Numbered from the stretch's first letter, positions 2,259-17,627 are shown. The stretch is DNA of 20,000 bases from an uncultured virus (IMG/VR IMGVR_UViG_3300048589_000479) (IMGVR_UViG_3300048589_000479), one strand, 5' to 3'. Numbers and translations: made by a program. Notes: generated by a model not told the origin, from the sequence alone.

Positions 2259-2768
2259 CTACGCCTCCGGGCCGAGCAGCAGTTCGAGATCCTCGGTGAC
2301 ACGCTGCACGACGTCGTGCTGCACCTTGAGGTCGGCGACACCTGCGCCTCGGCGCACCATCTCGGAGCCGGCCTGCAAAAGCGCCTGGATGTCCCGGACC
2401 TTGAGCAGCGCCGGGTTCTTGAGCTTGATCGCTTCGAGCCCGAGCCGGAGCATGATCTGGCCGGCGGCGTACTGCGTGGCGAGCGCCTCGTCCTCGCGCG
2501 GCTGGATCGCTGACGTGATCGCCACCACGGTCGCATCGTAGGCGCGGCACCGATCGTCCCATGCGTGCTTCGCAGCGGCGGCGCGCAGCAGCTTGACGGG
2601 GATTCCGACGAGACGAGCGGCGCGCGCGATCTCTCGCGTCTCGCCGAGCTCGGCGTAGCGCACGAACCAGGCGTACTCGTAGTTCGTCTCGCCGGTGCGC
2701 TGCTCCCAGACGGGGCGCGCTGTCAGCGAGTCGATTGCGTGGTCGTCGTGCGGAACGATGTCAGTCAT
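2259..2768 (-). CDS. terS: Probable terminase small subunit (169 aa)
   Basis: Start reassigned to ATG 2768 (TGATG overlap with upstream stop). WEQRTGET..YAWF.RY.ELG.TR...W.DR..AYD pattern recalled for TerS-like HTH proteins; abuts terL. Confidence 0.75.
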   Translation of the reverse strand: MTDIVPHDDHAIDSLTARPVWEQRTGETNYEYAWFVRYAELGETREIARAARLVGIPVKLLRAAAAKHAWDDRCRAYDATVVAITSAIQPREDEALATQYAAGQIMLRLGLEAIKLKNPALLKVRDIQALLQAGSEMVRRGAGVADLKVQHDVVQRVTEDLELLLGPEA

Positions 2769-3103
2769 CAGTGCAGGTCCATCGACAGCTTCGCGAGCGC
2801 CAGGCCGGACGCGCGCATTTCCTTCGAGTCGCCGAGCTCGGCTGCGATCTCGTAGCTCTTCTGGACACGCCCCCATGCGAGCACGAGCGTCCATGCGCCC
2901 TGGAGCTCTGGCGGCGCCGACTCGGTGAGCTCGTACAGCGCGCGCGCCGCAGCTTCGTCGCCGACCTCGCGGGCCAGCGCCGGCACGTTGCCGAGCACGA
3001 GCAGGCGGTCGATCAGATCCTTCATCGCCAGGTCGTGCGGGTTCATGACCGCGCGCGTCGTGGCCTCGATCTTCTTCCGTCGCTGGATCTCTTCGTAAGT
3101 CAT
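2768..3103 (-). CDS. Hypothetical protein (111 aa)
   Basis: MTYEEIQRRKK...; start/stop overlaps with both neighbours; phage-like codon usage. Confidence 0.75.
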   Translation of the reverse strand: MTYEEIQRRKKIEATTRAVMNPHDLAMKDLIDRLLVLGNVPALAREVGDEAAARALYELTESAPPELQGAWTLVLAWGRVQKSYEIAAELGDSKEMRASGLALAKLSMDLH

Positions 3104-3666
3104 GAGTACCGCCGTCCCGACTCGTGCATGGCGTCGCGGTCGCGCTCGGCGAAGTGCTCCTTCGTGTCGCGCCACTCCGCACGCTCGCGCAGGTCCACAT
3201 CGACCACGCCGCGCAGCACGAACTTCGTGTAGTGGTGCACTTCTTCGTCCGACATTTCACCCTTCATGTACCGCTCCATTTCCTTGCGCGGAGGGCGGGT
3301 GATCGACCAGTGCGTGCACGCGATCTCTTCGAGAACGCGCTTGCGGATCCACAGGTAGAGGTAGGTGTCAGCCTGGATCGGCCGGCCTTTGTAGAGCTTG
3401 CGCGGCTCGTAGCGATCGATGCCTTCGAGGACGCCTTGCCGCGATGCTTGTTCGAGGTCGGCGATCTCGACCCGCGTGTGGCGCGGCATCTTGTTCGCGT
3501 ACTGCTGCGCGATCTTCGGACCCATCGGCATCGCGAGCTCGATTGCCAGGTCGCGCGCCGGCACGAGATACACGCCGTTCTCGCGCGCCTCGTGGATCGT
3601 GTTGTACGGGCCGATCGCGTCGAGGATCACCTGGCGCACTCGTGCGTGGTCGATTCGCTCGCTCAA
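3100..3666 (-). CDS. Short sigma-70-like protein (region 2 only recognisable)
   Basis: ADLEQASRQGVLEGIDRYEP...DTYLYLWIRKRVLEEI matches the sigma region 2.2-2.4 pattern DL.Q....G......RFDP....TY...WIR; no region-4 HTH seen; TTGA overlap with upstream gene. Confidence 0.75.
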   Translation of the reverse strand: MSERIDHARVRQVILDAIGPYNTIHEARENGVYLVPARDLAIELAMPMGPKIAQQYANKMPRHTRVEIADLEQASRQGVLEGIDRYEPRKLYKGRPIQADTYLYLWIRKRVLEEIACTHWSITRPPRKEMERYMKGEMSDEEVHHYTKFVLRGVVDVDLRERAEWRDTKEHFAERDRDAMHESGRRYS

Positions 3667-4298: not shown

Positions 4299-5678
4299 TC
4301 AGAAGTCGATGTCGTCCTCCGTCGCCGCGCCGCTCCCCACGGCAGCAGCGACGGGCTGGGCGACTGGCGCCGGTGCCGCAACGGGCGCGGCGGCCACGGG
4401 CTCCTGCGCCGGCACGGGAGCGGGGGCGACAGCAGCCACAGGCGCCGGTGCCGGAGCAGCGACGGGAGCGGGTGCCGGAGCCGCAGCGACCGGAGCCGGA
4501 GCGGGAGCAACCTGCGCCACTGGCGCCGGTGCCGGAGCGACGGGGGCCGGAGCCGCCGCCACAGGTGCCGGAGCGACGACCGTCGCCCCGAAGGTGTCGG
4601 CGAGGTTCTGCACGCCAGGATCCGGGGATCCCACCGCGTTCGCGAACGCCTGGTCGAGCTCCGCTGCCTGCGGGCTGATCGGAGCGACGACCTGCGCCGG
4701 TGCTGCCGGAGCGGGTGCTGCCGGGATCGCAGCCTCCACGTCGGCGTACACCGGGGCGGGCTGGGCCACCGGAGCGGCCACGGGAGCCGCCACGGGGACC
4801 GGAGCGCCCACCGCAGCCACCGGGACGGGCTGGCCCACCGGAAGCGCTGCGAGTGGAGCAGCGGGTGCCGCGAGCTCGGCGGGCTGTGCGACGCCGCGCG
4901 AGATCGCGAACGGGTCGGACGAGATCACCGGCTTCAGACCGGCCGCGAACTCCGTGGTCTGCGCGAGCAGAGCGGGTTCGAGGGGTCGTCCGGGGTGGAA
5001 CTCGACCTTCGAGTAGATCACGTTGCCCGGCCCCTGCTCCGGCGTGAGCGTCAGGATCGTCTCGACCGACGCGAGGCGAATGCCGCGCGTCAGCAGGCGA
5101 CCCTTGTAGCCCTTGCCTCGACCTTCCCACGCGGGGATCGACGCGGCCGACAGGCGCACGAGGTACGGGATCGGAGCCGGCGAGCCGTGCAGCACCATGA
5201 AGAGCTCGCGGTAGCTGCTGTTCACGGGCGTGTCGGTGTTGCGGCCGGGGATGACCACGCCACCGTCCTTCGGGAACTTGTTGTACGGGCACTCGGCCAG
5301 GTTGCGCGAGGGGAACGGGAGCGACCATCCGTTCGCTGCGTTGAGCGCGGCGATCTTCTCGTATGTCTCCTGCGGCACGACCTGCACCACGCCGTCGTTG
5401 CTCCAGGCGTCCGGTCGGCGGCCGCCCTCGTCGCTGTCCTCGAACTTCTCGAGGTACAACTGCGTGGAGGGGCGGTGCCCGACGATCACGCCTCGGAGCT
5501 CGCGGGTGGGCTGGAAGGTGGGATCGTCCCGGTCCTCCCAGGTGGTGCCGCCACCGGCGGGAACCTTGATGCGGGGGAAGTCGGGCTGGAAGTCCGGGCC
5601 GCCCTCCTCGCGCCAGACCTCGGCGAGCGCGGAGGCGCCAGCGAGGTTGTATTCGGAAGCTACTGCGACTTCGCTCAT
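4299..5678 (-). CDS. Putative phage single-stranded DNA-binding protein with long Ala/Pro linker and acidic tip
   Basis: N-terminal FPRIKVPAGGG...GVIVGH...PDAWSNDG resembles a phage replication-module family; ends in EDDIDF like SSB C-terminal tips; SD AAGGA upstream. Confidence 0.6.
   Translation of the reverse strand: MSEVAVASEYNLAGASALAEVWREEGGPDFQPDFPRIKVPAGGGTTWEDRDDPTFQPTRELRGVIVGHRPSTQLYLEKFEDSDEGGRRPDAWSNDGVVQVVPQETYEKIAALNAANGWSLPFPSRNLAECPYNKFPKDGGVVIPGRNTDTPVNSSYRELFMVLHGSPAPIPYLVRLSAASIPAWEGRGKGYKGRLLTRGIRLASVETILTLTPEQGPGNVIYSKVEFHPGRPLEPALLAQTTEFAAGLKPVISSDPFAISRGVAQPAELAAPAAPLAALPVGQPVPVAAVGAPVPVAAPVAAPVAQPAPVYADVEAAIPAAPAPAAPAQVVAPISPQAAELDQAFANAVGSPDPGVQNLADTFGATVVAPAPVAAAPAPVAPAPAPVAQVAPAPAPVAAAPAPAPVAAPAPAPVAAVAPAPVPAQEPVAAAPVAAPAPVAQPVAAAVGSGAATEDDIDF
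4330..4870 (-). repeat. Low-complexity coding repeats (APAPVAA / APVAQP)
   Basis: Repeated GCCGGTGCCGGAGC-like units encoding Ala/Pro/Val-rich repeats within 4299..5678. Confidence 0.8.
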
Positions 5679-7212: not shown

Positions 7213-7454
7213 GACTTGTCCACCACGATCTCGAGCGGCCGGTACTTCCAGCGCGCCCGGTTGCGATTCCATGACTCGGCCCACGACAGGGCGCAGCGCC
7301 AGGTCGCATGGTCGCCGCCGGTGATGTAGCGCTTCCGAGCTCGGTGTCCAGATGGTCGCCTGCTCTTCGCGTCCCAGCCGTTGTATTCGCGGCTGATGAT
7401 CCAACGCCCGTTGCGGTCGCGGTGCACGACCATGTTCTCGGTTTCCGAGCTCAT
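7209..7454 (-). CDS. Hypothetical basic Trp-rich protein (81 aa)
   Basis: ATG 7454 in ATGA overlap; MSSETENMVVHRDRNGRW... Confidence 0.65.
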   Translation of the reverse strand: MSSETENMVVHRDRNGRWIISREYNGWDAKSRRPSGHRARKRYITGGDHATWRCALSWAESWNRNRARWKYRPLEIVVDKS

Positions 7455-8233
7455 GCCGAGGCGACGACCTGGAGCTTCACCCGCTTCTGCGGCGGGCGGC
7501 CGCGCAGCCCGGCAGCCTTGCGGAGCTCGGTCGCAACGAACATGGGAGCAGAGCCGCCCAGGTTCGCGCGGCCGGCCTGGGCGCGGCGCTTGATGTCCAC
7601 CGGCGCCTGCTTGCGCAGCCGCTCCGTGTGCGACTCGTTCCACCGCTCGGAGTAGTCGGCCAGGACTTCGCCCATGCCGCCGATGATCGAGCCGTCGAGC
7701 GAGTACGGATCCTCGTACCAGGCGTCGCGAATCACGTTGAAGACGCGGGCCAGGATCTCGACCCCGTGCTTCGCTGCGATCTTCTCGATCGACGCGACAG
7801 CCTTGACGTCGTTCGCGCCGTTCCCGACGACGTAGCCGGAGCGCAGCAGTGCGTCAGCGATCATCTGCGCGTCCTTGTCGCCGGAGAAGAGTTGAGCACG
7901 GAAGCGCTCGACCGGAGTCGGCGGCCGGCGGTCCCTCTGCAGCCGCACGAAGAGCTCGGCTTCCTGCTGGGCCGAGAGCCCGACGTGCACGATGCACGGG
8001 GCGTCGTCCTCGCCAAGCGCCTTGAGCGCGGCGAGCCGGTGCTGCCCGTCGAAGACAGCGCACACGCCGTTCTCGCGTCGGGACACTTCCAGCGCGCCGA
8101 GTTGCGCGGGGTTGAACTCGTCCACGATCTTCCCGACGCGGTGCTCCATGAGCTTGCGCTGGTATCGGGTGTCAATCACCATGCGGTCGACTGACACGAT
8201 CTCGAACTTCGGCCTTGCCTGCTTCGTGGTCAT
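7451..8233 (-). CDS. ParB/Srx-like N-terminal domain protein (DGQHR; DUF6551-like, 260 aa)
   Basis: ID.RYQR.L...RV.KI...F....LG...VS.R......FDGQHRL.A; start reassigned to ATG 8233. Confidence 0.85.
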   Translation of the reverse strand: MTTKQARPKFEIVSVDRMVIDTRYQRKLMEHRVGKIVDEFNPAQLGALEVSRRENGVCAVFDGQHRLAALKALGEDDAPCIVHVGLSAQQEAELFVRLQRDRRPPTPVERFRAQLFSGDKDAQMIADALLRSGYVVGNGANDVKAVASIEKIAAKHGVEILARVFNVIRDAWYEDPYSLDGSIIGGMGEVLADYSERWNESHTERLRKQAPVDIKRRAQAGRANLGGSAPMFVATELRKAAGLRGRPPQKRVKLQVVASA

Positions 8234-8267
8234 GCTAGTGGGCTTTCGGGTTGGGGGTGCGGGTTGG

Positions 8268-8564
8268 CTATTCTTCTTCGTCGCTGGCAGGTTCGTCGCG
8301 CTCGACCTTGCCGCCAGCGTTGATCGCGTTGGACACGAGAATGTCCACGGCGTAGGTGTCGACCACCTGCCAGTCGTCGCTCTTCGCAACGAGCTCGGCG
8401 AAGTTCTTGTTGGTCTTCCCCTCCATGTAGGAGCCGCCGCCAGCGCGCACGAGCGTCACGATGCCCGTGGCGGTCGGCGCCTTCGCCACGACGTAGAGCT
8501 TCCAGCCGTCCGGCTTGCCCTCGCCGCGCTTGACGCGCTCGGCTACCAGTGTGCCCGGCCCCAT
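8268..8564 (-). CDS. Hypothetical protein (98 aa)
   Basis: TGATG overlap with upstream gene; phage-like codon usage. Confidence 0.7.
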   Translation of the reverse strand: MGPGTLVAERVKRGEGKPDGWKLYVVAKAPTATGIVTLVRAGGGSYMEGKTNKNFAELVAKSDDWQVVDTYAVDILVSNAINAGGKVERDEPASDEEE

Positions 8565-9292
8565 CAGACGTCAGCCTTCGGTGCGATGTGACCGTCGGGG
8601 CCGTGGCCGCAGTAGTGGCACAGCGTCGGGTCGAACGTGCGGTGCTCGATCACGTCCTCGCCCTTCGAGTAGTCGAGGCGCGGGGATCCGTCCTCCTCGA
8701 ACTCGCCCTCAACTTCTGGGTAAGTTGTATCCACCACGACGTCGCCGGACCAGTCGCCCGCCTTGAAGCGGTGCAGCGAGGGCCGAGCGAGCATGGCCCA
8801 CTGGAGCTCGGAGAGGTACTGCGACAGCACGATCCGCTGGGCCAGACCCATCCACGGCATCGACCAGATCTTCCGGGCCGCCGTGTATGCGCCGTTGATC
8901 TGCTCGTCGGTGAACTTGTTGACGGCCGACTCCAGGACCGGCTCGAAGCCCTCGGCGGTCATCGTCACGGCGCCGTCGATCAGACCCGGCACCGGGAGCG
9001 CGTAGAAGTGGCCGGGGCGAGGCTTGCGGAACTCCGGCTGCGCCTGCGGCTCGCGCTCTTCGTCCTCGTCGTATGTCACCGACCAGGGTTGACCGCCTTC
9101 GTCCAGGTGCAGGAAGAGGGCGTCGAAGATCGCGTCGGGATCCTCGTTGAGCACATCCCAGAGCTTCGCTTCCGAGATCTCGGACGGGTCGCCATAGATC
9201 TCCTCGACCTTCTGGCGTGGAACGGGAACGCGCAGCCGTAGCTCGACGTCGAGCATGGCGTAGGTCTTCGTGTCAGTCGATGCGGTGGTCAT
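8564..9292 (-). CDS. Hypothetical acidic protein with C-terminal CxxCGH...H motif (242 aa)
   Basis: ATG 9292 in ATGA overlap; ends LCHYCGHGPDGH. Confidence 0.75.
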   Translation of the reverse strand: MTTASTDTKTYAMLDVELRLRVPVPRQKVEEIYGDPSEISEAKLWDVLNEDPDAIFDALFLHLDEGGQPWSVTYDEDEEREPQAQPEFRKPRPGHFYALPVPGLIDGAVTMTAEGFEPVLESAVNKFTDEQINGAYTAARKIWSMPWMGLAQRIVLSQYLSELQWAMLARPSLHRFKAGDWSGDVVVDTTYPEVEGEFEEDGSPRLDYSKGEDVIEHRTFDPTLCHYCGHGPDGHIAPKADV

Positions 9293-9576
9293 GAGGTCTG
9301 CTCCGGGTAGGTGATCTCGAAGACGTGCCAGACGAATCTTCCCTCCTGGTACGTCCCGATGTAGTGGTGGTACTTCGTGACTTCTTCGTGGCCGGTCCCG
9401 ACGATCTGGAACAACCGCTCGGCATCGCCGTTGTGCGGATCGACGAGCGCCCAGATGAACGGCTCCGGATCGCTGCCCTGCAACTGCAAGGACAGGATCT
9501 CTGCGCCCTTCGGCATCTTGAGCTCGAAGCGTCCGTTGGGCGTGAGTGGGACGTGGAACTTCCAGACCGCCTTCAC
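9289..9576 (-). CDS. Conserved small phage protein (DUF7352-like)
   Basis: VWKF...MPKGAEILSLQ.Q...WALVDP...GTGH...YIGT.Q...VWHVFE pattern recalled from many phages. Confidence 0.8.
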   Translation of the reverse strand: MKAVWKFHVPLTPNGRFELKMPKGAEILSLQLQGSDPEPFIWALVDPHNGDAERLFQIVGTGHEEVTKYHHYIGTYQEGRFVWHVFEITYPEQTS

Positions 9577-11814: not shown

Positions 11815-12537
11815 CTACTTCTTCTTCGTCACGGACAGGGTGGGCTCGGAGTGAACCTTCACCATTGTCAGCAGCGTCTCGTGGCGAGCGATGCGGTCGG
11901 CAAGCTGCTCGGCCGCCGTCACCGTCACGGAGATCTCGTTGCCCTCGTCGTCCTCGCGAAGCTCCACGCGATCGGAGAGGCCGAGCGCGTCGAGGAGCTC
12001 CTGCCCGGAGAGCGGCACCTGGTCGTCGCCGACCTGCTTCGTCGCCTCGATCGGGTGGTCCTTGAGCCACGTCGAGATCGTCGACTTGAGCGTGTTCGCG
12101 TTGATCGTGCCCTCGGCCACCTTCGGCGCGCCGTTGTCGATGAGCCACTGCTTCAAGTCGGGGTTGCCCGTGCCGCCGAGTTCCTTGATCGCCTGGATCT
12201 GCTTGTTGGAGCTCATGGCGAACGTCTGGCCCATGTGCGTGAAGCCGGTCGGACCCTTCTCGGCCATGACCTCGAACAACTTGATCTCGACTTCGCTCGT
12301 GTATTCCTTCACGGCGCTGGCGAGATCACCCAGGAAGTCCTTGACGCGGCGAAGGCGAAGAACCTCCTCCGCGAGCGGGAGCGCGTCTTCGGGGAGGACG
12401 TACTGCACCGGGTCGGTGTCGGGAATGTAGTAGGGTGGCGTCGTGAGCTCCACGCCTCGCTTGACGATGTGGATCAGGGTATCGTCGCCTCGCTCCTGCG
12501 AAAGTCGCGCTACCAGGCCGTCCAGCTTCTCGCTCAC
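11815..12537 (-). CDS. Phage replication-module protein (gp33-like; 240 aa)
   Basis: Start reassigned to GTG 12537 (SD GGAGGA); coiled coil followed by LKQWLIDNG...TINANTLKSTI, recalled from proteins adjacent to phage SNF2 helicases. Confidence 0.6.
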   Translation of the reverse strand: MSEKLDGLVARLSQERGDDTLIHIVKRGVELTTPPYYIPDTDPVQYVLPEDALPLAEEVLRLRRVKDFLGDLASAVKEYTSEVEIKLFEVMAEKGPTGFTHMGQTFAMSSNKQIQAIKELGGTGNPDLKQWLIDNGAPKVAEGTINANTLKSTISTWLKDHPIEATKQVGDDQVPLSGQELLDALGLSDRVELREDDEGNEISVTVTAAEQLADRIARHETLLTMVKVHSEPTLSVTKKK

Positions 12538-12574
12538 AATCTTCCTCCGTAAGTATCTCGCGGTGTCATGTAGC

Positions 12575-12603
12575 AGTGTATCGTGAGATACATGCCATTG
12601 CAA
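12575..12603 (-). promoter_or_regulatory. Housekeeping sigma-type promoter TTGCAA-N17-TACACT with overlapping inverted repeat
   Basis: -35 at 12598-12603 and -10 at 12575-12580 with a 17-nt spacer, in an AT-rich intergenic gap; palindrome GTATC-N4-GATAC at 12578-12591. Confidence 0.8.
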
Positions 12604-12625
12604 CCATAAGGAAGAAGTTTGGCCT

Positions 12626-14290
12626 CTATCGGCCACGCCGGAGAAGGAACCGCTGCCAGCCGCCGTCCACGATCTCGTCGGCTACTTCCTTCTTCTCGAC
12701 CTGGGTATCGAGGATCGTTTCATCGATCGTGTCCAGGGCGAGCAGGTGGTGGTGGGTCACGGGCTGCGTCTGGCCGATGCGGTGGTAGCGCGCGAGCGCC
12801 TGCTGGAACACGGCCGACGCGAACGGCGACGAGTAGAACGCGCCGTCGCTGGCAGCGTGCAGCGTGATGCCCTCCGCGCACGCCTGGATCTGCCCCACGA
12901 AGAACCAGGCGTCGCCGTCCTGGAACTGGTCGATCATCTTGCCGCGCGCCGAGCCCTTCACCTGGCCGTTGATGTAGCTGACCGGCGTGTTCTTTCCGGA
13001 GATCCGCTCGGCGGCCTTGATGATCGCCTGGCCCTCGTGCGTGAAGCGGTGGAAGATCACGAGCTTCGCGTTCGCGTCGCGCAACGTCTCCATGAGATCG
13101 GTGAGGCACGACAGCTTCGCGTTCTTCTTCGAGTCGATCGGCTCCACAGAGTCGCGCCCGTCCACCTGCATGAACCCGCCGGTGATCTGCTGCAACCGGA
13201 GCATCCGCGTCAGTACGTTGTCGCCGAGGATCTCGGACTCGTCGCCCATATCGAGCGATGCCGCTTGCGTCAGGAAGTCCAGGCCGCCGCCGCCCTCGAC
13301 GAACGCGATCGAGTCGCGCACGAGGTCGTCGTAGAGCCGGCGCGCCTTCGGGTCAAGCTCGAACTCGATGCGTGCGTGGGTCTGCTCCGGCAGGTCCACC
13401 GCTTCTTCCTTCGAGACGCGGTGCACGCGCTCCATCACCCGGCGTTCGAGCTCCGGCAGCGTGTGCGGATTGATGACCACCTTGCGGAACGTGCCGCAGT
13501 CGATCTCGATAGCGAACTGGCGCTTGAAGTTCGTGTGGTTCGTGCCGAGCACGCGGTCGTCCAGGAAGCGGAACTGGCCGTACCAGTCGAGCCCGCCTTC
13601 GGGCACCGGCGTGCCGGTCATGATGATTCGCATAGGGGCTGCGGTCGCTGGCCGGAACGGTGTCAGCATGGCGGCGCCGGTCCACGCCTGGAGCACGAAG
13701 CTCGCGGCCTTGCCGATGCGGTGCATGGCCTTCGACTGGTTCGAGCCCGGCGCCTTCAACCGCTGGCTCTCGTCGCACACGTCGATGTCGAAGCCGGCCG
13801 CCTTGAGCTCGGCTTCCATGCGCCAGGTGCCCTCGTAGTTGAGCGCCACGATCCCAGGGAGAACCACCTGGCCGTAGCGCCGGGCCAGGTCGCGGCGCGC
13901 CAGCCACTCCTCGAGATCGCGCTTGCGGCGCTTCACCGAAGGGTGGTCGAGGGAGAGCACGTCGATCTCCGTGCCGCCGCGCGCGGTGATCCCGAGTGAC
14001 TCCTTCTTCCAGGCTGACACGACGGACGACGGGCACACGACCAGCATGGACTCCGCGCGGCCCTCGGCGTGCATAGCCAGGAAGCCGCCGAGCACGGTCA
14101 GCGTCTTCCCGCAGCCCATATCGTGCAGCAGGCCGAACGAGCCGAAGCGCTCGAGTCGCTCCATCATGCACGCGAGCCCGTTGGCTTGATGCACGAACGG
14201 GACGATGTGGCAGTGGCGGCGCAGCAGCATTGACGCGCGGCCTGCCCCCGGCTCCGACGGGCGCCGATCCTTTGTCGGCGGGTCGATCAC
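12626..14290 (-). CDS. SNF2-family (SF2) DNA helicase
   Basis: Motifs HDMGCGKT, VVCP, CDESQ, MTGTP, EGITL, QALARYHRIGQ. Start is GTG 14290 (GTGA overlap) or ATG 14230. Confidence 0.92.
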   Translation of the reverse strand: MIDPPTKDRRPSEPGAGRASMLLRRHCHIVPFVHQANGLACMMERLERFGSFGLLHDMGCGKTLTVLGGFLAMHAEGRAESMLVVCPSSVVSAWKKESLGITARGGTEIDVLSLDHPSVKRRKRDLEEWLARRDLARRYGQVVLPGIVALNYEGTWRMEAELKAAGFDIDVCDESQRLKAPGSNQSKAMHRIGKAASFVLQAWTGAAMLTPFRPATAAPMRIIMTGTPVPEGGLDWYGQFRFLDDRVLGTNHTNFKRQFAIEIDCGTFRKVVINPHTLPELERRVMERVHRVSKEEAVDLPEQTHARIEFELDPKARRLYDDLVRDSIAFVEGGGGLDFLTQAASLDMGDESEILGDNVLTRMLRLQQITGGFMQVDGRDSVEPIDSKKNAKLSCLTDLMETLRDANAKLVIFHRFTHEGQAIIKAAERISGKNTPVSYINGQVKGSARGKMIDQFQDGDAWFFVGQIQACAEGITLHAASDGAFYSSPFASAVFQQALARYHRIGQTQPVTHHHLLALDTIDETILDTQVEKKEVADEIVDGGWQRFLLRRGR

Positions 14291-14472
14291 GCCGGGAAGA
14301 GGTTGACGCCAGCGTAGAAGGTGAACGCGCCGAGCGTGAAGAAGAAGGCTCGGAAGCCCCACGGCACGCGCTCGCGCATCGCCTTCGAGTAGGTGCTGGC
14401 AGCCTGGGTCGCGCCGGAGAGGATCACGGCGACAGCGATCGTGGCCTGCGTGATTTCCACGGCCTCGTTCAT
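14287..14472 (-). CDS. Small membrane protein (61 aa, 2 hydrophobic segments)
   Basis: MNEAVEITQATIAVAVILSGA...FFFTLGAFTFYAGVNLFPA; ATGA overlap. Confidence 0.65.
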   Translation of the reverse strand: MNEAVEITQATIAVAVILSGATQAASTYSKAMRERVPWGFRAFFFTLGAFTFYAGVNLFPA

Positions 14473-14925: not shown

Positions 14926-16215
14926 TCAGTCGGAGAGCGGGTCCGACACCGGCTCGGGCGCCGGGCGGTCGATGCCGTAGCGCGACGAGACGTACCGCAT
15001 CACGCGGATCTGCGCGTCGCGGTCGAGGTCCAGCAGCGCCTCGCGCACGATGTCCATCGCCGCGATCTCCGGATCGAACTCGCCGACCGGCTCCTGGATC
15101 TCGGCCATGTGCACCTTGACGCCCAGCTTGCCGAGCTCGGCTTCCACGTCGCGCGCGGCGCCGGCCGCGAGCTCTGCGTTGCGCAGGCTGCCGTTGTAGG
15201 CACCCAGCGCGCTCTCCGCGTGCTTCATGGAGCCGACGTACAGCCCCATCGCTCGCTCGTGGAGGCCGATCAGCTTGCGAGCGGTCGCCTGCTTGTCACC
15301 GACGGGGAACATGATGCCCCCGTCGAAGTCCACGAGGTCGGCCTGGTACATCGCCTTCGAGAGATCGAACGCCACGATCGAGCGACCGTCCTTGCAGACG
15401 TCCACCCCGATCTCTGCCGCGAGCTCGTCGCCGAGCACGAGCGGTGCATCGGGGCGGCCGCCGTCGCGGGCGAAGTCGCACAGCGCGATTGCCTCCAGGA
15501 CGGAGTTCACTTCCTGCGCGTCGCCCTCGCCGTTGAGCCACCGCTGGATCTCGGCCGGCGGCCACTCGCCCTCGGTCGCGTCGCTGTCGGGCTCCGGCCG
15601 GCTGTCCGGATCGCGGTCGGGGTTGCACTCGTCCGGGTTGCCGCAGCACGTCTCGCCCGCGTCGCGCGGGCAGCCCTCCGGGTTGAGGTTGTACGCCGCC
15701 GCGCGCTCGCGGTCGAGCCGACCGTCCAGGCGCGGGTCGCTCTCGCCGGGCATGATCGTCTTCGACGCCTTGCCCGACTCGATCTCCTCCGGCGTGGCCG
15801 GCAGGTCGATGCCAGTGTCGACGACCTCGTGCAGTCGCACGGTGCCAGGGTGCGCGGGCTCGGCGGCCGCGTTCTTCTCGGCGTCACGCGCCAGGCCGTA
15901 GTGCTTCGTGCACAGGCCGCGCGCTGCGTGACGGCGCGAGAACTTCTCGTCGTCGGGGCACTCCGAGCAGCCGTCCGGGTGGGCGCGGCTCTTCCACTTC
16001 TTGATTCCGAGCATCGGTGTCGTCTCCTGGGTGGGGGGCGCGGCGAACTTCGCCTGACGCTCCGGGTCGTTTTCGCAGAGGCCGCACTTGTCACCCTTGC
16101 GGTACCGCAGGATCTTCGTTCCGCACGCGCAGCGGCGTCCGGTACCGAAGTCCTGCGGCGCCTTCCCCGACAGGCCGCCGGGAGAGATCGCCGAGTAGTG
16201 GGTGCGCTCTGCCAT
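14926..16215 (-). CDS. Hypothetical multi-Cys-cluster protein (429 aa)
   Basis: Start at ATG 16215, 7 nt after the promoter motif; CACG...CGLC, CSEC...ARGLCTKHY and CPRD...CCGNPDEC clusters; C-terminal coiled coil. Confidence 0.8.
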   Translation of the reverse strand: MAERTHYSAISPGGLSGKAPQDFGTGRRCACGTKILRYRKGDKCGLCENDPERQAKFAAPPTQETTPMLGIKKWKSRAHPDGCSECPDDEKFSRRHAARGLCTKHYGLARDAEKNAAAEPAHPGTVRLHEVVDTGIDLPATPEEIESGKASKTIMPGESDPRLDGRLDRERAAAYNLNPEGCPRDAGETCCGNPDECNPDRDPDSRPEPDSDATEGEWPPAEIQRWLNGEGDAQEVNSVLEAIALCDFARDGGRPDAPLVLGDELAAEIGVDVCKDGRSIVAFDLSKAMYQADLVDFDGGIMFPVGDKQATARKLIGLHERAMGLYVGSMKHAESALGAYNGSLRNAELAAGAARDVEAELGKLGVKVHMAEIQEPVGEFDPEIAAMDIVREALLDLDRDAQIRVMRYVSSRYGIDRPAPEPVSDPLSD

Positions 16216-16222
16216 GCACGAG

Positions 16223-16246
16223 ATCATGAAGAAGCAGCCGGACGCA
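16223..16246 (-). promoter_or_regulatory. Conserved promoter motif copy TGCGTCCG-GCTGCTTCTT-CATGAT (leaderless)
   Basis: 7 nt to ATG 16215; directly after hairpin 16250-16287. Confidence 0.85.
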
Positions 16247-16249
16247 GAA

Positions 16250-16287
16250 GAACGCGGGGAGCAACCCGAAGGTCACTCCCGTTGTTC
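16250..16287 (-). terminator. Terminal hairpin with cUUCGg loop
   Basis: - strand GGGAGTGACC-TTCG-GGTTGCTCCC flanked by GAAC/GTTC and followed by TT. Confidence 0.65.
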
Positions 16288-16469
16288 CCGGCCGTCACAC
16301 GATCTTCGGCTATCGCCCGGCGCCGTGTCAGTAGAAACCGTCTCGCTCGCAAAGTGTCGGACGTGGCTGGCCTGCGTGTGCGTCGTACACGGCTACGCTG
16401 CCGTCGTCACACGTTTCCCGCTGCTATTCCGGCTCCGGTCATGGCCTCGGCTGGATTCGGTACGTCCAC
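16250..16469 (-). ncRNA. Candidate structured ncRNA B (~220 nt)
   Basis: Own promoter motif (16475-16498), terminal hairpin, nested stems GGACGT/ACGTCC, CGTGTG/CACACG and ACGGC/GCCGT; only a 20-codon ORF at its start. Confidence 0.5.
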
Positions 16470-16474
16470 GAAGA

Positions 16475-16498
16475 AGCGTAGCATGGCCGCCGGACGCA
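16475..16498 (-). promoter_or_regulatory. Conserved promoter motif copy TGCGTCCG-GCGGCCATGC-TACGCT
   Basis: Exact 8-mer, N10, TANNNT; follows terminator 16512-16537. Confidence 0.8.
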
Positions 16499-16511
16499 CC
16501 CGGATACACGA

Positions 16512-16537
16512 ACGCCCCCGCTCGGAAGCGGGGGCGT
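16512..16537 (-). terminator. Intrinsic terminator
   Basis: Perfect 11-bp stem ACGCCCCCGCT-TCCG-AGCGGGGGCGT followed by TCGTGTAT on the - strand. Confidence 0.8.
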
Positions 16538-16540
16538 CGC

Positions 16541-16796
16541 TGGTAGATCCACCGGGGCTCTCACCCGGCAAGCCCATTTAGGTCCACGAACCCGGACGAA
16601 CCGGGAGCGACCATCTTTGGGTGGCGCCAGTGTCCGAGCCCTTTGTGCCAGTCGCCCGATCAGGTTCATCTGGAGCCGCTTCGATCCCGAGCATTCTCCA
16701 CTGCCAACCCGGAGCTCTAGTCCCGGTCCCGCGATACTCGAAAGTTGCGCGGTGCAGTTTCGGGAGGAGCCCTGCGGCGGCGCCTCCGATCAACAA
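16541..16796 (-). ncRNA. Candidate structured ncRNA A (~255 nt) ending in T-loop arm + ACCA
   Basis: Own promoter motif (16802-16825), terminator 3 nt after ...GGATCTACCA, at least 7 stems visible by eye, and atypical codons in the overlapping frame. Confidence 0.6.
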
Positions 16797-16801
16797 GGGG
16801 A

Positions 16802-16825
16802 ACGATACACAGGTCGCCGGACGCA
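16802..16825 (-). promoter_or_regulatory. Conserved promoter motif copy TGCGTCCG-GCGACCTGTG-TATCGT
   Basis: Exact 8-mer, N10, TANNNT; back-to-back with 16847-16870. Confidence 0.8.
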
Positions 16826-16846
16826 AGTCAAGCACGAGTTTCGCAG

Positions 16847-16870
16847 TGCGTCCGACTTCACTGTGAAGAT
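16847..16870 (+). promoter_or_regulatory. Conserved promoter motif copy TGCGTCCG-ACTTCACTGT-GAAGAT (leaderless, sigma gene)
   Basis: The only + strand copy with a valid -10; 7 nt before the in-frame GTG 16878 of the only + strand gene. Confidence 0.8.
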
Positions 16871-16877
16871 CCTGGAA

Positions 16878-17627
16878 GTGAAGCCGTTTGAGACACGCCG
16901 AGCAATCGAGGAGTCCATGCGATCGGGCGCCGCCCGCATCCTGGACGACTCCCGCGTGCTGTCCGACGATCCCCGCGAGCACTCCGAGCTCCTGACACGC
17001 TTCGCGGTCCAGGCCAACGCCGGCAACGAAGCCGCGATGAACATCGTGGTGAACTGCATGAGCCGCCTGGTCTTCCGGCTGTCGGAGACGTACTTCTGGA
17101 AGTGGAGCACGCACCTGCCTGCCCACGCCTCGTTCGACAACGTGTTCAATGCCGGCCTGGAGGGGCTCGTGATCGGCACCGGCAAGTTCGACCCGGAGCG
17201 CGGCACGGTGCTCACCACGAGCGCGACGCACTGGATCCGCACGAAGGTCCAGCGCGAGATCTACGCGCAGTGCGGCGCCGCGCGCATCCCGGAGCACGTT
17301 CTGCAGGGCGGGCTCGACCCCGGCTCTCCGCTCGTCGCGAGCTCGACGTCCAGCCTGGACTTCCGCTATGAAGAAGACGGGCCGAGCCTCGGCGACACGA
17401 TCCCGGCCGAAGACGAGACGCTCGAAGAGGCCGGGCAGCGCGCAGCCCTCGAGAAGATCGTCGCGCTGCTGCGCACCCTGGACGACAAGATGCCGAAGGT
17501 CGCCGAGTACCTGGAGCGCGGCTACGCGGATCGAGAGATCGCACGGCTGACAGGGCTCACGTCGAAGCGCGTTGCCGAGCTACGCGGGCAGGCCGAGCAG
17601 CTTCTTCGCTCGCACGGCTACGGCTGA
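16878..17627 (+). CDS. Phage-encoded sigma-70-family factor (249 aa)
   Basis: Region 1.2/2.1 ANAGNEAAMNIVVNCMSRLVFRLS; region 2.2-2.4 AGLEGLVIGTGKFDPERGTVLTTSATHWIR; SSLD...SLGDTI; region 4 GYADREIARLTGLTSKRVAEL. Start reassigned to GTG 16878. Confidence 0.9.
   Translation: MKPFETRRAIEESMRSGAARILDDSRVLSDDPREHSELLTRFAVQANAGNEAAMNIVVNCMSRLVFRLSETYFWKWSTHLPAHASFDNVFNAGLEGLVIGTGKFDPERGTVLTTSATHWIRTKVQREIYAQCGAARIPEHVLQGGLDPGSPLVASSTSSLDFRYEEDGPSLGDTIPAEDETLEEAGQRAALEKIVALLRTLDDKMPKVAEYLERGYADREIARLTGLTSKRVAELRGQAEQLLRSHGYG

Follow-up and report, generated by a model that had tools for sequence, protein, structure and literature searches.

What might be made from the 688-bp gap (16228-16916) that separates a phage sigma-factor gene, read on the + strand, from a gene for a 433-residue protein, read on the − strand, in the 20,000-nucleotide stretch of DNA analysed here (the window)? 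A sequence-only reading had placed in this gap an undescribed structured RNA or tRNA mimic. Of that proposal a − strand non-coding RNA with a conserved promoter, terminator and core has stood, while the tRNA mimicry has not. We give an even chance to the explanation that the gap holds a stand-alone non-coding RNA (sRNA) gene of an uncultured high-GC phage, referred to below as RNA A.

The window has a G+C content of 67% and is coded mostly on the − strand. The landmarks used here are as follows.

684-2258, large terminase
2259-3260, small terminase
12626-14362, SNF2 helicase
14926-16227, − strand, 433-aa gene downstream of RNA A, with GC3 of 0.92 and five relatives
16917-17627, + strand, phage sigma-factor gene divergent from RNA A, 236 aa from its ATG, matching phrog_351 with E 2.3e-17

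The sigma factor has 22 relatives, 14 of which carry PF04542. The 433-aa protein belongs to no Pfam or PHROG family and found no usable match in the ESM Atlas, and many other ORFs of the window are also without a family match. The terminase is at most about 28% identical to those of described phages, mostly phages of Microbacterium, Arthrobacter and Gordonia, and the identity of the sigma factor to proteins of 50,697 phage records does not exceed about 35%; judged by these proteins, the nearest described phages are remote relatives of the window phage. Close relatives of the flanking proteins occur in Logan/ENA metagenome assemblies only; the roughly 20 relatives of the sigma factor found there show 87% to 38% identity, on contigs that reach 43.9 kb. 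Of the 24 rows listed for runs that contain some of the region, 20, from 11 studies, are metagenomes of wastewater, biofilm or bioreactors. The phage to which the window belongs is novel and has a high GC content. Elsewhere in the window, a second, weak sigma-like ORF (3100-3666, − strand; Sigma70_r2 with E 0.002, below the Pfam cut-off) adjoins the small terminase gene, and GC-rich tandem or interspersed repeats of 41-58 nt occupy 4338-4817, inside a 459-aa ORF without family match (4299-5678, − strand). Three − strand ORFs, at 7451-8389 (DUF6551, E 2e-21), 9289-9576 (DUF7352, E 1.4e-22) and 11815-12636 (DUF7307 'Pam3 gp33-like', E 3.7e-6), provide the only other family matches in the replication/early region.

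The anatomy of RNA A on the − strand is given below; L002 is the relative with which it is compared.

16802-16831, − strand, promoter P_A, with the -35 hexamer TTGACT (16826-16831), GCGTCCG (16818-16824) and the -10 hexamer TATCGT (16802-16807), predicted start at about 16795
16505-16796, − strand, predicted primary transcript (RNA A) of about 290 nt, placed from the promoter and terminator positions
16634-16796, − strand, conserved 5' core common to the window and L002, holding P1, P2, P3, P4 and P5
16763-16787, − strand, hairpin P1, GGAGG..CCUCC
16754-16758 with 16700-16704, − strand, helix P2, ACUGC/GCAGU, enclosing P3 and P4
16729-16752, − strand, hairpin P3, CCGCG..UUCG..CGCGG
about 16709-16726, − strand, variable hairpin P4
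16672-16699, − strand, P5
16542-16633, − strand, 92-nt segment specific to the window lineage, holding CCCGG-UUCGU-CCGGG and a look-alike of a T-arm, acceptor and CCA end
16511-16538, − strand, terminator hairpin T1, with an 11-bp GC stem and a 6-nt loop, followed by the tail CGUGUAUCC

The hexamers of P_A are spaced as TTGACT-18-TATCGT, a consensus match from which the start was predicted, and a good -35 thus accompanies the GCGTCCG motif at this promoter. A consensus scan of 16000-17400 returned one sigma-70-like site against 0.1 ± 0.3 expected; over the whole window the count was two against 1.2 ± 1.1 and, because this is at chance level, the number of sites alone proves nothing. The putative terminator T1 lies about 290 nt downstream of P_A. 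Its tail contains four U in eight positions, below the threshold of the terminator scan, which makes no call at T1.

Conservation of these features was assessed against L002, a JGI metagenome contig and the only relative found with the region upstream of the sigma gene, whose sigma factor is 65% identical to that of the window over residues 1-141. Both hexamers of P_A and its GCGTCCG motif are conserved in L002, together with the first 163 nt of the RNA and the terminator hairpin. The two sequences agree at 65 of the first 70 nt of the RNA, at 57 of 88 positions in the remainder and at 122 of 158 across the core. The segment 16720-16799 is the best-conserved 80 nt of the 1.6-kb alignment (70/80, compared with 65-66/80 for the best coding stretches), the coding flanks of which vary from 42 to 85% identity per 40-nt bin. 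Two segments are absent from L002, namely 16542-16633 (92 nt) and 16244-16505 (262 nt between T1 and the 433-aa gene); these length differences may be insertions in the window or deletions in L002. The predicted RNA measures about 290 nt in the window phage and about 195 nt in L002. The 92-nt segment is also found in a contig of run X5, that is, in a second sample, and this contig (a single one, of depth 3) carries a SNP at 16520 that converts a C:G pair of T1 into U:G on the − strand.

A structure of 41 pairs, comprising P1, P2, P3, the outer part of P5, two pairs of P6 and T1, was tested on the alignment of the window with L002; its helices were derived from the window and chosen after both sequences had been viewed. 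P4 and the inner part of P5, which form hairpins in both sequences in different registers, were left out. The complementary segments listed by the sequence-only reading are all present on the − strand where it had placed them, and P1, P2 enclosing P3, UGGAG/CUCCA and T1 also hold in L002. In the test, 81 of 82 cells pair, with standard pairs at all 41 positions of L002. Most pairs never vary (33 of 41), four change on one side, each to or from G-U, and three change on both sides, from G:C to C:G in P2, from A:U to G:C in P6 and from C:G to G:U in T1. The remaining pair is a C.U mismatch in the window and C:G in L002. The three changes in T1 (C:G to U:G, C:G to G:U and G:U to A:U) are all paired on the − strand, and two are mismatched on the + strand. 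Non-standard cells number six when these columns are read as + strand but one when they are read as − strand, which identifies the − strand as that of the RNA. In a covariation control, 66 of 500 shuffles were equal or better, a comparison in which two sequences cannot reach significance, and slid controls remained 42-45% paired, a figure biased by the derivation of the structure from the window. For P4, the inner P5 and P6, the paired columns do not correspond between the two sequences, and P5 and P6 compete for two nucleotides.

Predicted pair probabilities are high in both the window and L002 for P3 (0.99 and 0.98, respectively) and T1 (0.89 and 0.98), and lower for P1 (0.41 and 0.58). P2 reaches 0.21 in the window and 0.74 in L002, P4 0.02 and 0.84, and P5 0.99 and 0.04. 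The proposed pairing of GGGCGACUG with UGGUCGCUC has a probability of about 0.14, and its 3' strand is missing from L002. The folding energy of RNA A is not better than chance in the window, in L002 or in the alignment. Against shuffled sequences, 16505-16800 gave z −1.01 on the − strand (36 of 200 shuffles fold as well) and z −1.63 on the + strand (13/200); the conserved core alone gave z +0.52 (137/200), the − strand of the L002 RNA z +0.11 (97/200) and the 92-nt 3' segment z +0.15 (107/200). When the alignment fold was compared with column shuffles, z was −1.12 for the − strand and −0.6 for the + strand. Comparison with shuffles had been named by the sequence-only reading as a check on its fold, and with z between −1.0 and +0.5 the RNA did no better than they did. 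The multi-stem architecture claimed for the locus is therefore retained in part: P1, P2, P3, UGGAG/CUCCA and T1 hold in L002, but folding is at chance level and P4, P5 and P6 are unsteady. The secondary structure of RNA A is suggestive, not proven.

The same data bear on whether an RNA is needed at all. The conserved block might be operator and promoter DNA of the divergent region, and any RNA from P_A might arise, without a function of its own, from divergent transcription, promoter insulation or supercoiling coupling. We consider this unlikely. The region is indeed one of divergent promoters, with GCGTCCG on both strands (16818-16824 and 16848-16854) and repeats resembling protein sites; the palindromes P1 and P3 could be operators, and the fold is not unusually stable. 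However, conservation reaches 160 nt into the transcribed region and resumes at the terminator, the one-sided changes involving G-U keep the RNA pairing and break the DNA palindromes, and the strands of P2 lie about 50 nt apart, unlike those of an operator.

Known RNA families were searched with Rfam 15. No match at the gathering score was found in the window, for tmRNA, YrlA, 6S, Ms1, GOLLD, ROOL, raiA, riboswitches or leaders among others. At E ≤ 10 three matches appeared, scoring 9-18 bits where the thresholds are 40-49.5, and the highest-scoring one falls on the terminator; in L002 a single match scored 16 bits, its threshold being 40. The absence of any known Rfam family, on which the novelty of the RNA had been made to depend, was thus borne out at the gathering score for both sequences.

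The 3' end of the proposed RNA had been described as having exactly the geometry of a T-arm and acceptor, ending in CCA, and a second, similar T-loop had been placed upstream. The first of these is the following element.

16541-16568, − strand, CCGGG-UGAGAGC-CCCGG-UGGAUCU-ACCA, a 5-bp stem, 7-nt loop, 7 nt and NCCA

The geometry is present, and the spacings are right, as would be expected if RNA A were processed to end at the ACCA at 16541 and its 3' end recognised by tRNA enzymes. The pattern of a 5-bp Watson-Crick stem, 7-nt loop, 7 nt and NCCA nevertheless occurs at chance frequency: the window has two instances, where random sequence would give 1.06 ± 0.97, and with G-U pairs allowed it has six, where 4.65 ± 2.2 are expected. 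The RNA contains no 5' acceptor strand for UGGAUCU, the best 7-mers resembling AGAUCCA having two mismatches in seven. For the T-arm-like hairpin the predicted pair probability is 0.00, and a fold forced to contain it is 4.8 kcal/mol less favourable. The ACCA is located 3 nt before the T1 hairpin and is for that reason internal to the predicted primary transcript, so that a CCA end would require unproven processing. ARAGORN found no gene in the window and none in 16400-16900 at its default, 90% and 80% thresholds; at 70%, 16400-16900 yielded six low-grade calls, which overlap and are spread over both strands, and no − strand call has its 3' end at 16541. Rfam was equally without a match, and the entire module is missing from L002. 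The second proposed T-loop, CUAGAGC in P4, fares no better, a different hairpin with a UUCG loop taking its place in L002. Functional mimicry of tRNA is, on this evidence, scarcely credible, and the tRNA-like tail would appear to be a chance resemblance, located in a segment that is absent from the only known relative. The lesson is that strings combining a T-arm with NCCA arise at chance frequency in GC-rich DNA.

The coding potential of the region was also evaluated. The only long frame in RNA A opens at TTG 16796/16793, extends for 72 codons and is open in L002 too. If it were translated from a leaderless mRNA, the locus would be a small protein gene, and the TTG does lie 5 nt after the -10 hexamer, with the frame open in both phages across 47 shared codons and the predicted peptides 62% identical (29/47, counted by hand). 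These observations are countered by several others. The start codon is TTG, and high GC leaves many frames open by chance. The GC3 of the frame is 0.64, compared with 0.82-0.93 in the ORFs behind other motif sites. Differences between the window and L002 are distributed over the three codon positions as 11/13/11, without third-position excess, and comprise five synonymous and 17 non-synonymous codon changes. The test by codon position is weak here, true genes showing 43/31/50 and 116/108/129 with little third-position excess, and GC3 is the stronger coding test. The C-terminal parts of the two frames are unrelated, the window frame stopping inside the insert and the L002 frame running through the terminator. 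Compared with 5.8 billion proteins, the peptide gave three candidates, none at E ≤ 0.01. The region of RNA A has no credible ORF and no coding signature, and a small protein gene is highly improbable.

The GCGTCCG element of P_A belongs to a family. A repeat search revealed a 28-nt motif at four gene starts, which was resolved as GCGTCCG, 10 nt and a hexamer NANNNT. This arrangement is found at eight of the 15 exact GCGTCCG sites in the window, against a background rate of 0.025 (binomial P 8.5e-10), and seven of the eight are on the − strand. The sites, with the elements assigned to three of them, are the following.

16848, + strand, and 16824, 16497, 16245, 14874, 6035, 5751 and 660, all − strand, motif sites in the window
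2932 (+), 2895 (−) and 2677 (−) in L002, motif sites at the three corresponding places
1442 (−) in the relative L003, motif site
16848-16880, + strand, sigma-gene promoter, with GCGTCCG at 16848-16854, the -10 hexamer GAAGAT at 16865-16870 and an in-frame GTG at 16878, conserved in L002
16213-16245, − strand, promoter of the 433-aa gene, with GCGTCCG at 16239-16245, the -10 hexamer CATGAT at 16223-16228 and an ATG at 16215, 7 nt after the hexamer, the same in L002
16244-16505, − strand, 262-nt 'RNA B' cassette, absent from L002 and flanked by GCGTCCGGC, with GCGTCCG at 16491-16497, TACGCT at 16475-16480 and no ORF
16257-16280, − strand, hairpin T2 at the end of RNA B

At four of the eight motif sites a coding-like ATG or GTG follows 5-7 nt after the hexamer (GTG 16878, ATG 16215, ATG 14845 and ATG 632), which is the geometry of leaderless mRNAs. 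Mapping of transcription start sites in M. tuberculosis (PMC3898074) describes a TANNNT -10, no -35 and many leaderless genes, and the geometry of the motif fits this actinobacterial architecture. The 433-aa gene probably starts at its second ATG, at 16215, which would give a protein of 429 aa; its first ATG (16227) is inside the -10-like hexamer. The sigma ORF has two candidate starts: GTG 16878, 7 nt after GAAGAT, which may be leaderless and gives 249 aa, and ATG 16917, preceded by a GAGGAG ribosome-binding site, which gives 236 aa, the length of most relatives. Two motif sites only, those of RNA A (16824) and RNA B (16497), have no ORF behind them. The site of RNA B is positioned just after T1. 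The fold of RNA B has z +0.68, and no similarity between RNA A and RNA B was found. Two runs labelled 'RNA?', one of which is probably DNA, have contigs covering only 16332-16514 of 1.4 kb.

The phage sigma factor, an activator or a repressor of the 'stoperator' type could recognise GCGTCCG. The stoperators of mycobacteriophage L5 are asymmetric repeated repressor sites. The motif resembles them in being a short asymmetric repeat at promoters and gene starts, oriented mostly along the direction of transcription. Unlike them, it keeps a fixed 10-nt distance to a -10-like hexamer, and it could equally be a promoter element for a sigma factor or an activator site.

The promoter map bears on the relation of RNA A to the gene downstream. 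RNA A and T1 could form an attenuator or a processive-antitermination element (put-like or riboswitch-like) in the 5' leader of a leftward operon, acting in cis to determine how far transcripts from P_A continue into the 433-aa gene and those after it. RNA A is co-oriented with these genes, no more than about 22 nt separate the terminator hairpin of L002 from the gene's first ATG, and a conserved structured RNA directly follows an early-type promoter. Against this, the 433-aa gene has a promoter-like motif of its own in both phages, complete with -10 and leaderless ATG, and in the window the 262-nt cassette with its own terminator-like hairpin intervenes; both observations argue against RNA A being simply the leader of the gene. 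As the cassette is found between them only in the window, RNA A need not adjoin the gene. In addition, the 5' strand of T1 has no conserved alternative partner, the candidate being GGGCG (16653-16657) in the window and the 3' strand of P4 in L002, and no Rfam riboswitch or leader was matched. We regard a cis-acting leader as quite unlikely, and the stand-alone RNA gene remains the preferred explanation.

Further relatives of this gene were sought in several collections. Two exact DNA patterns were not found in viral contigs, nor was a degenerate P1 pattern in genome contigs, and a blastn comparison of 16200-16950 with 50,697 phage records was without a match, as was one with plasmids. Scans of viral contigs with the sigma factor or the 433-aa protein singly recovered no relatives. 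A protein-guided scan with alignment yielded one distant locus (L001), the scan of genome contigs none, and that of metagenome contigs four loci, with the upstream region only in L002. A covariance model of the core, run over 38,837 bases, recovered just its two training sequences, the next hit scoring 14.7 bits inside a coding region. None of the runs listed as containing the stretch is recorded as RNA, and the contigs from four runs are fragmentary, none covering 16699-16839. Elsewhere in the window, RNA A and RNA B find only complementary 9-14-mers, at chance level. No description of RNA A or of the GCGTCCG motif was found in the literature, in a search that was not exhaustive.

The closest described case known to us is that of the cluster A mycobacteriophages (L5, D29 and StarStuff), which produce abundant and stable non-coding RNAs from the early lytic promoter P_left (Dedrick et al. 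2017, PMC5712189). Both loci pair an early promoter with a region of several hundred nucleotides without conserved ORF in an actinophage-like genome, upstream of early genes and in the same direction, and no function is assigned in either. They differ in that the region of RNA A has no sequence similarity to phage records and in that at RNA A a discrete terminator is visible, as is a promoter that belongs to the next gene alone. Abundance, stability and toxicity are shown for the P_left RNAs.

The following sequence of events is proposed for RNA A. P_A, through its -35 and -10 hexamers and the phage GCGTCCG motif, would fire leftwards at about 16795, and the transcript would end at the 11-bp GC hairpin T1. 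The conserved 5' 130-160 nt would form hairpin P1 and, next to it, a junction whose helix P2 surrounds both the invariant P3, with its UUCG cap, and the variable P4, and the 3' 92 nt with the tRNA look-alike would be a lineage-specific extra domain. RNA A would be made early by the host RNA polymerase, as the good -35 suggests, and would act in trans as a regulator or as a binder of a host or phage factor, with the P_left RNAs as the model.

Two further groups of small RNAs deserve comparison. The first comprises the processed, tRNA-like phage regulators C4 RNA (P1 and P7) and CI RNA (P4) and the tRNA mimics Y RNA/YrlA, all of them small and equipped with acceptor- or T-arm-like modules; RNA A differs from them in having no Rfam match, no acceptor helix and no conservation of the module. 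The 6S and Ms1 RNAs bind RNA polymerase and measure about 200-300 nt. RNA A falls into a similar size class, and a phage-encoded sigma factor nearby would make a polymerase-binding RNA useful, but it has no Rfam match at E ≤ 10, and its core consists of a hairpin and a junction, in contrast to the long rod with a central bubble of 6S and Ms1. A more specific proposal is that RNA A represents a new family of structured phage RNAs that aids the takeover of transcription, for instance by binding or titrating the host polymerase carrying the principal sigma factor, or another host factor. The neighbouring phage sigma factor would then redirect transcription to the GCGTCCG promoters, and the variable 3' domain, as an addition peculiar to one lineage, might mimic a host RNA. 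We consider this specific role very unlikely as it stands.

For the stand-alone RNA gene, the comparisons point to a probable new phage-encoded sRNA, of a known kind, belonging to no Rfam family and represented by two sequences. To our knowledge, few small RNAs encoded by phages have been described, and hardly any of them in uncultured phages of high GC content. The lineage of the window phage has no cultured relative, and RNA A provides for it a clearly bounded candidate, located beside a sigma-factor gene, in which the core is conserved and the variable domain modular. Together with the leaderless starts, GCGTCCG-N10-NANNNT offers a testable map of the transcription units of this phage, one that tells coding from non-coding units without RNA data.
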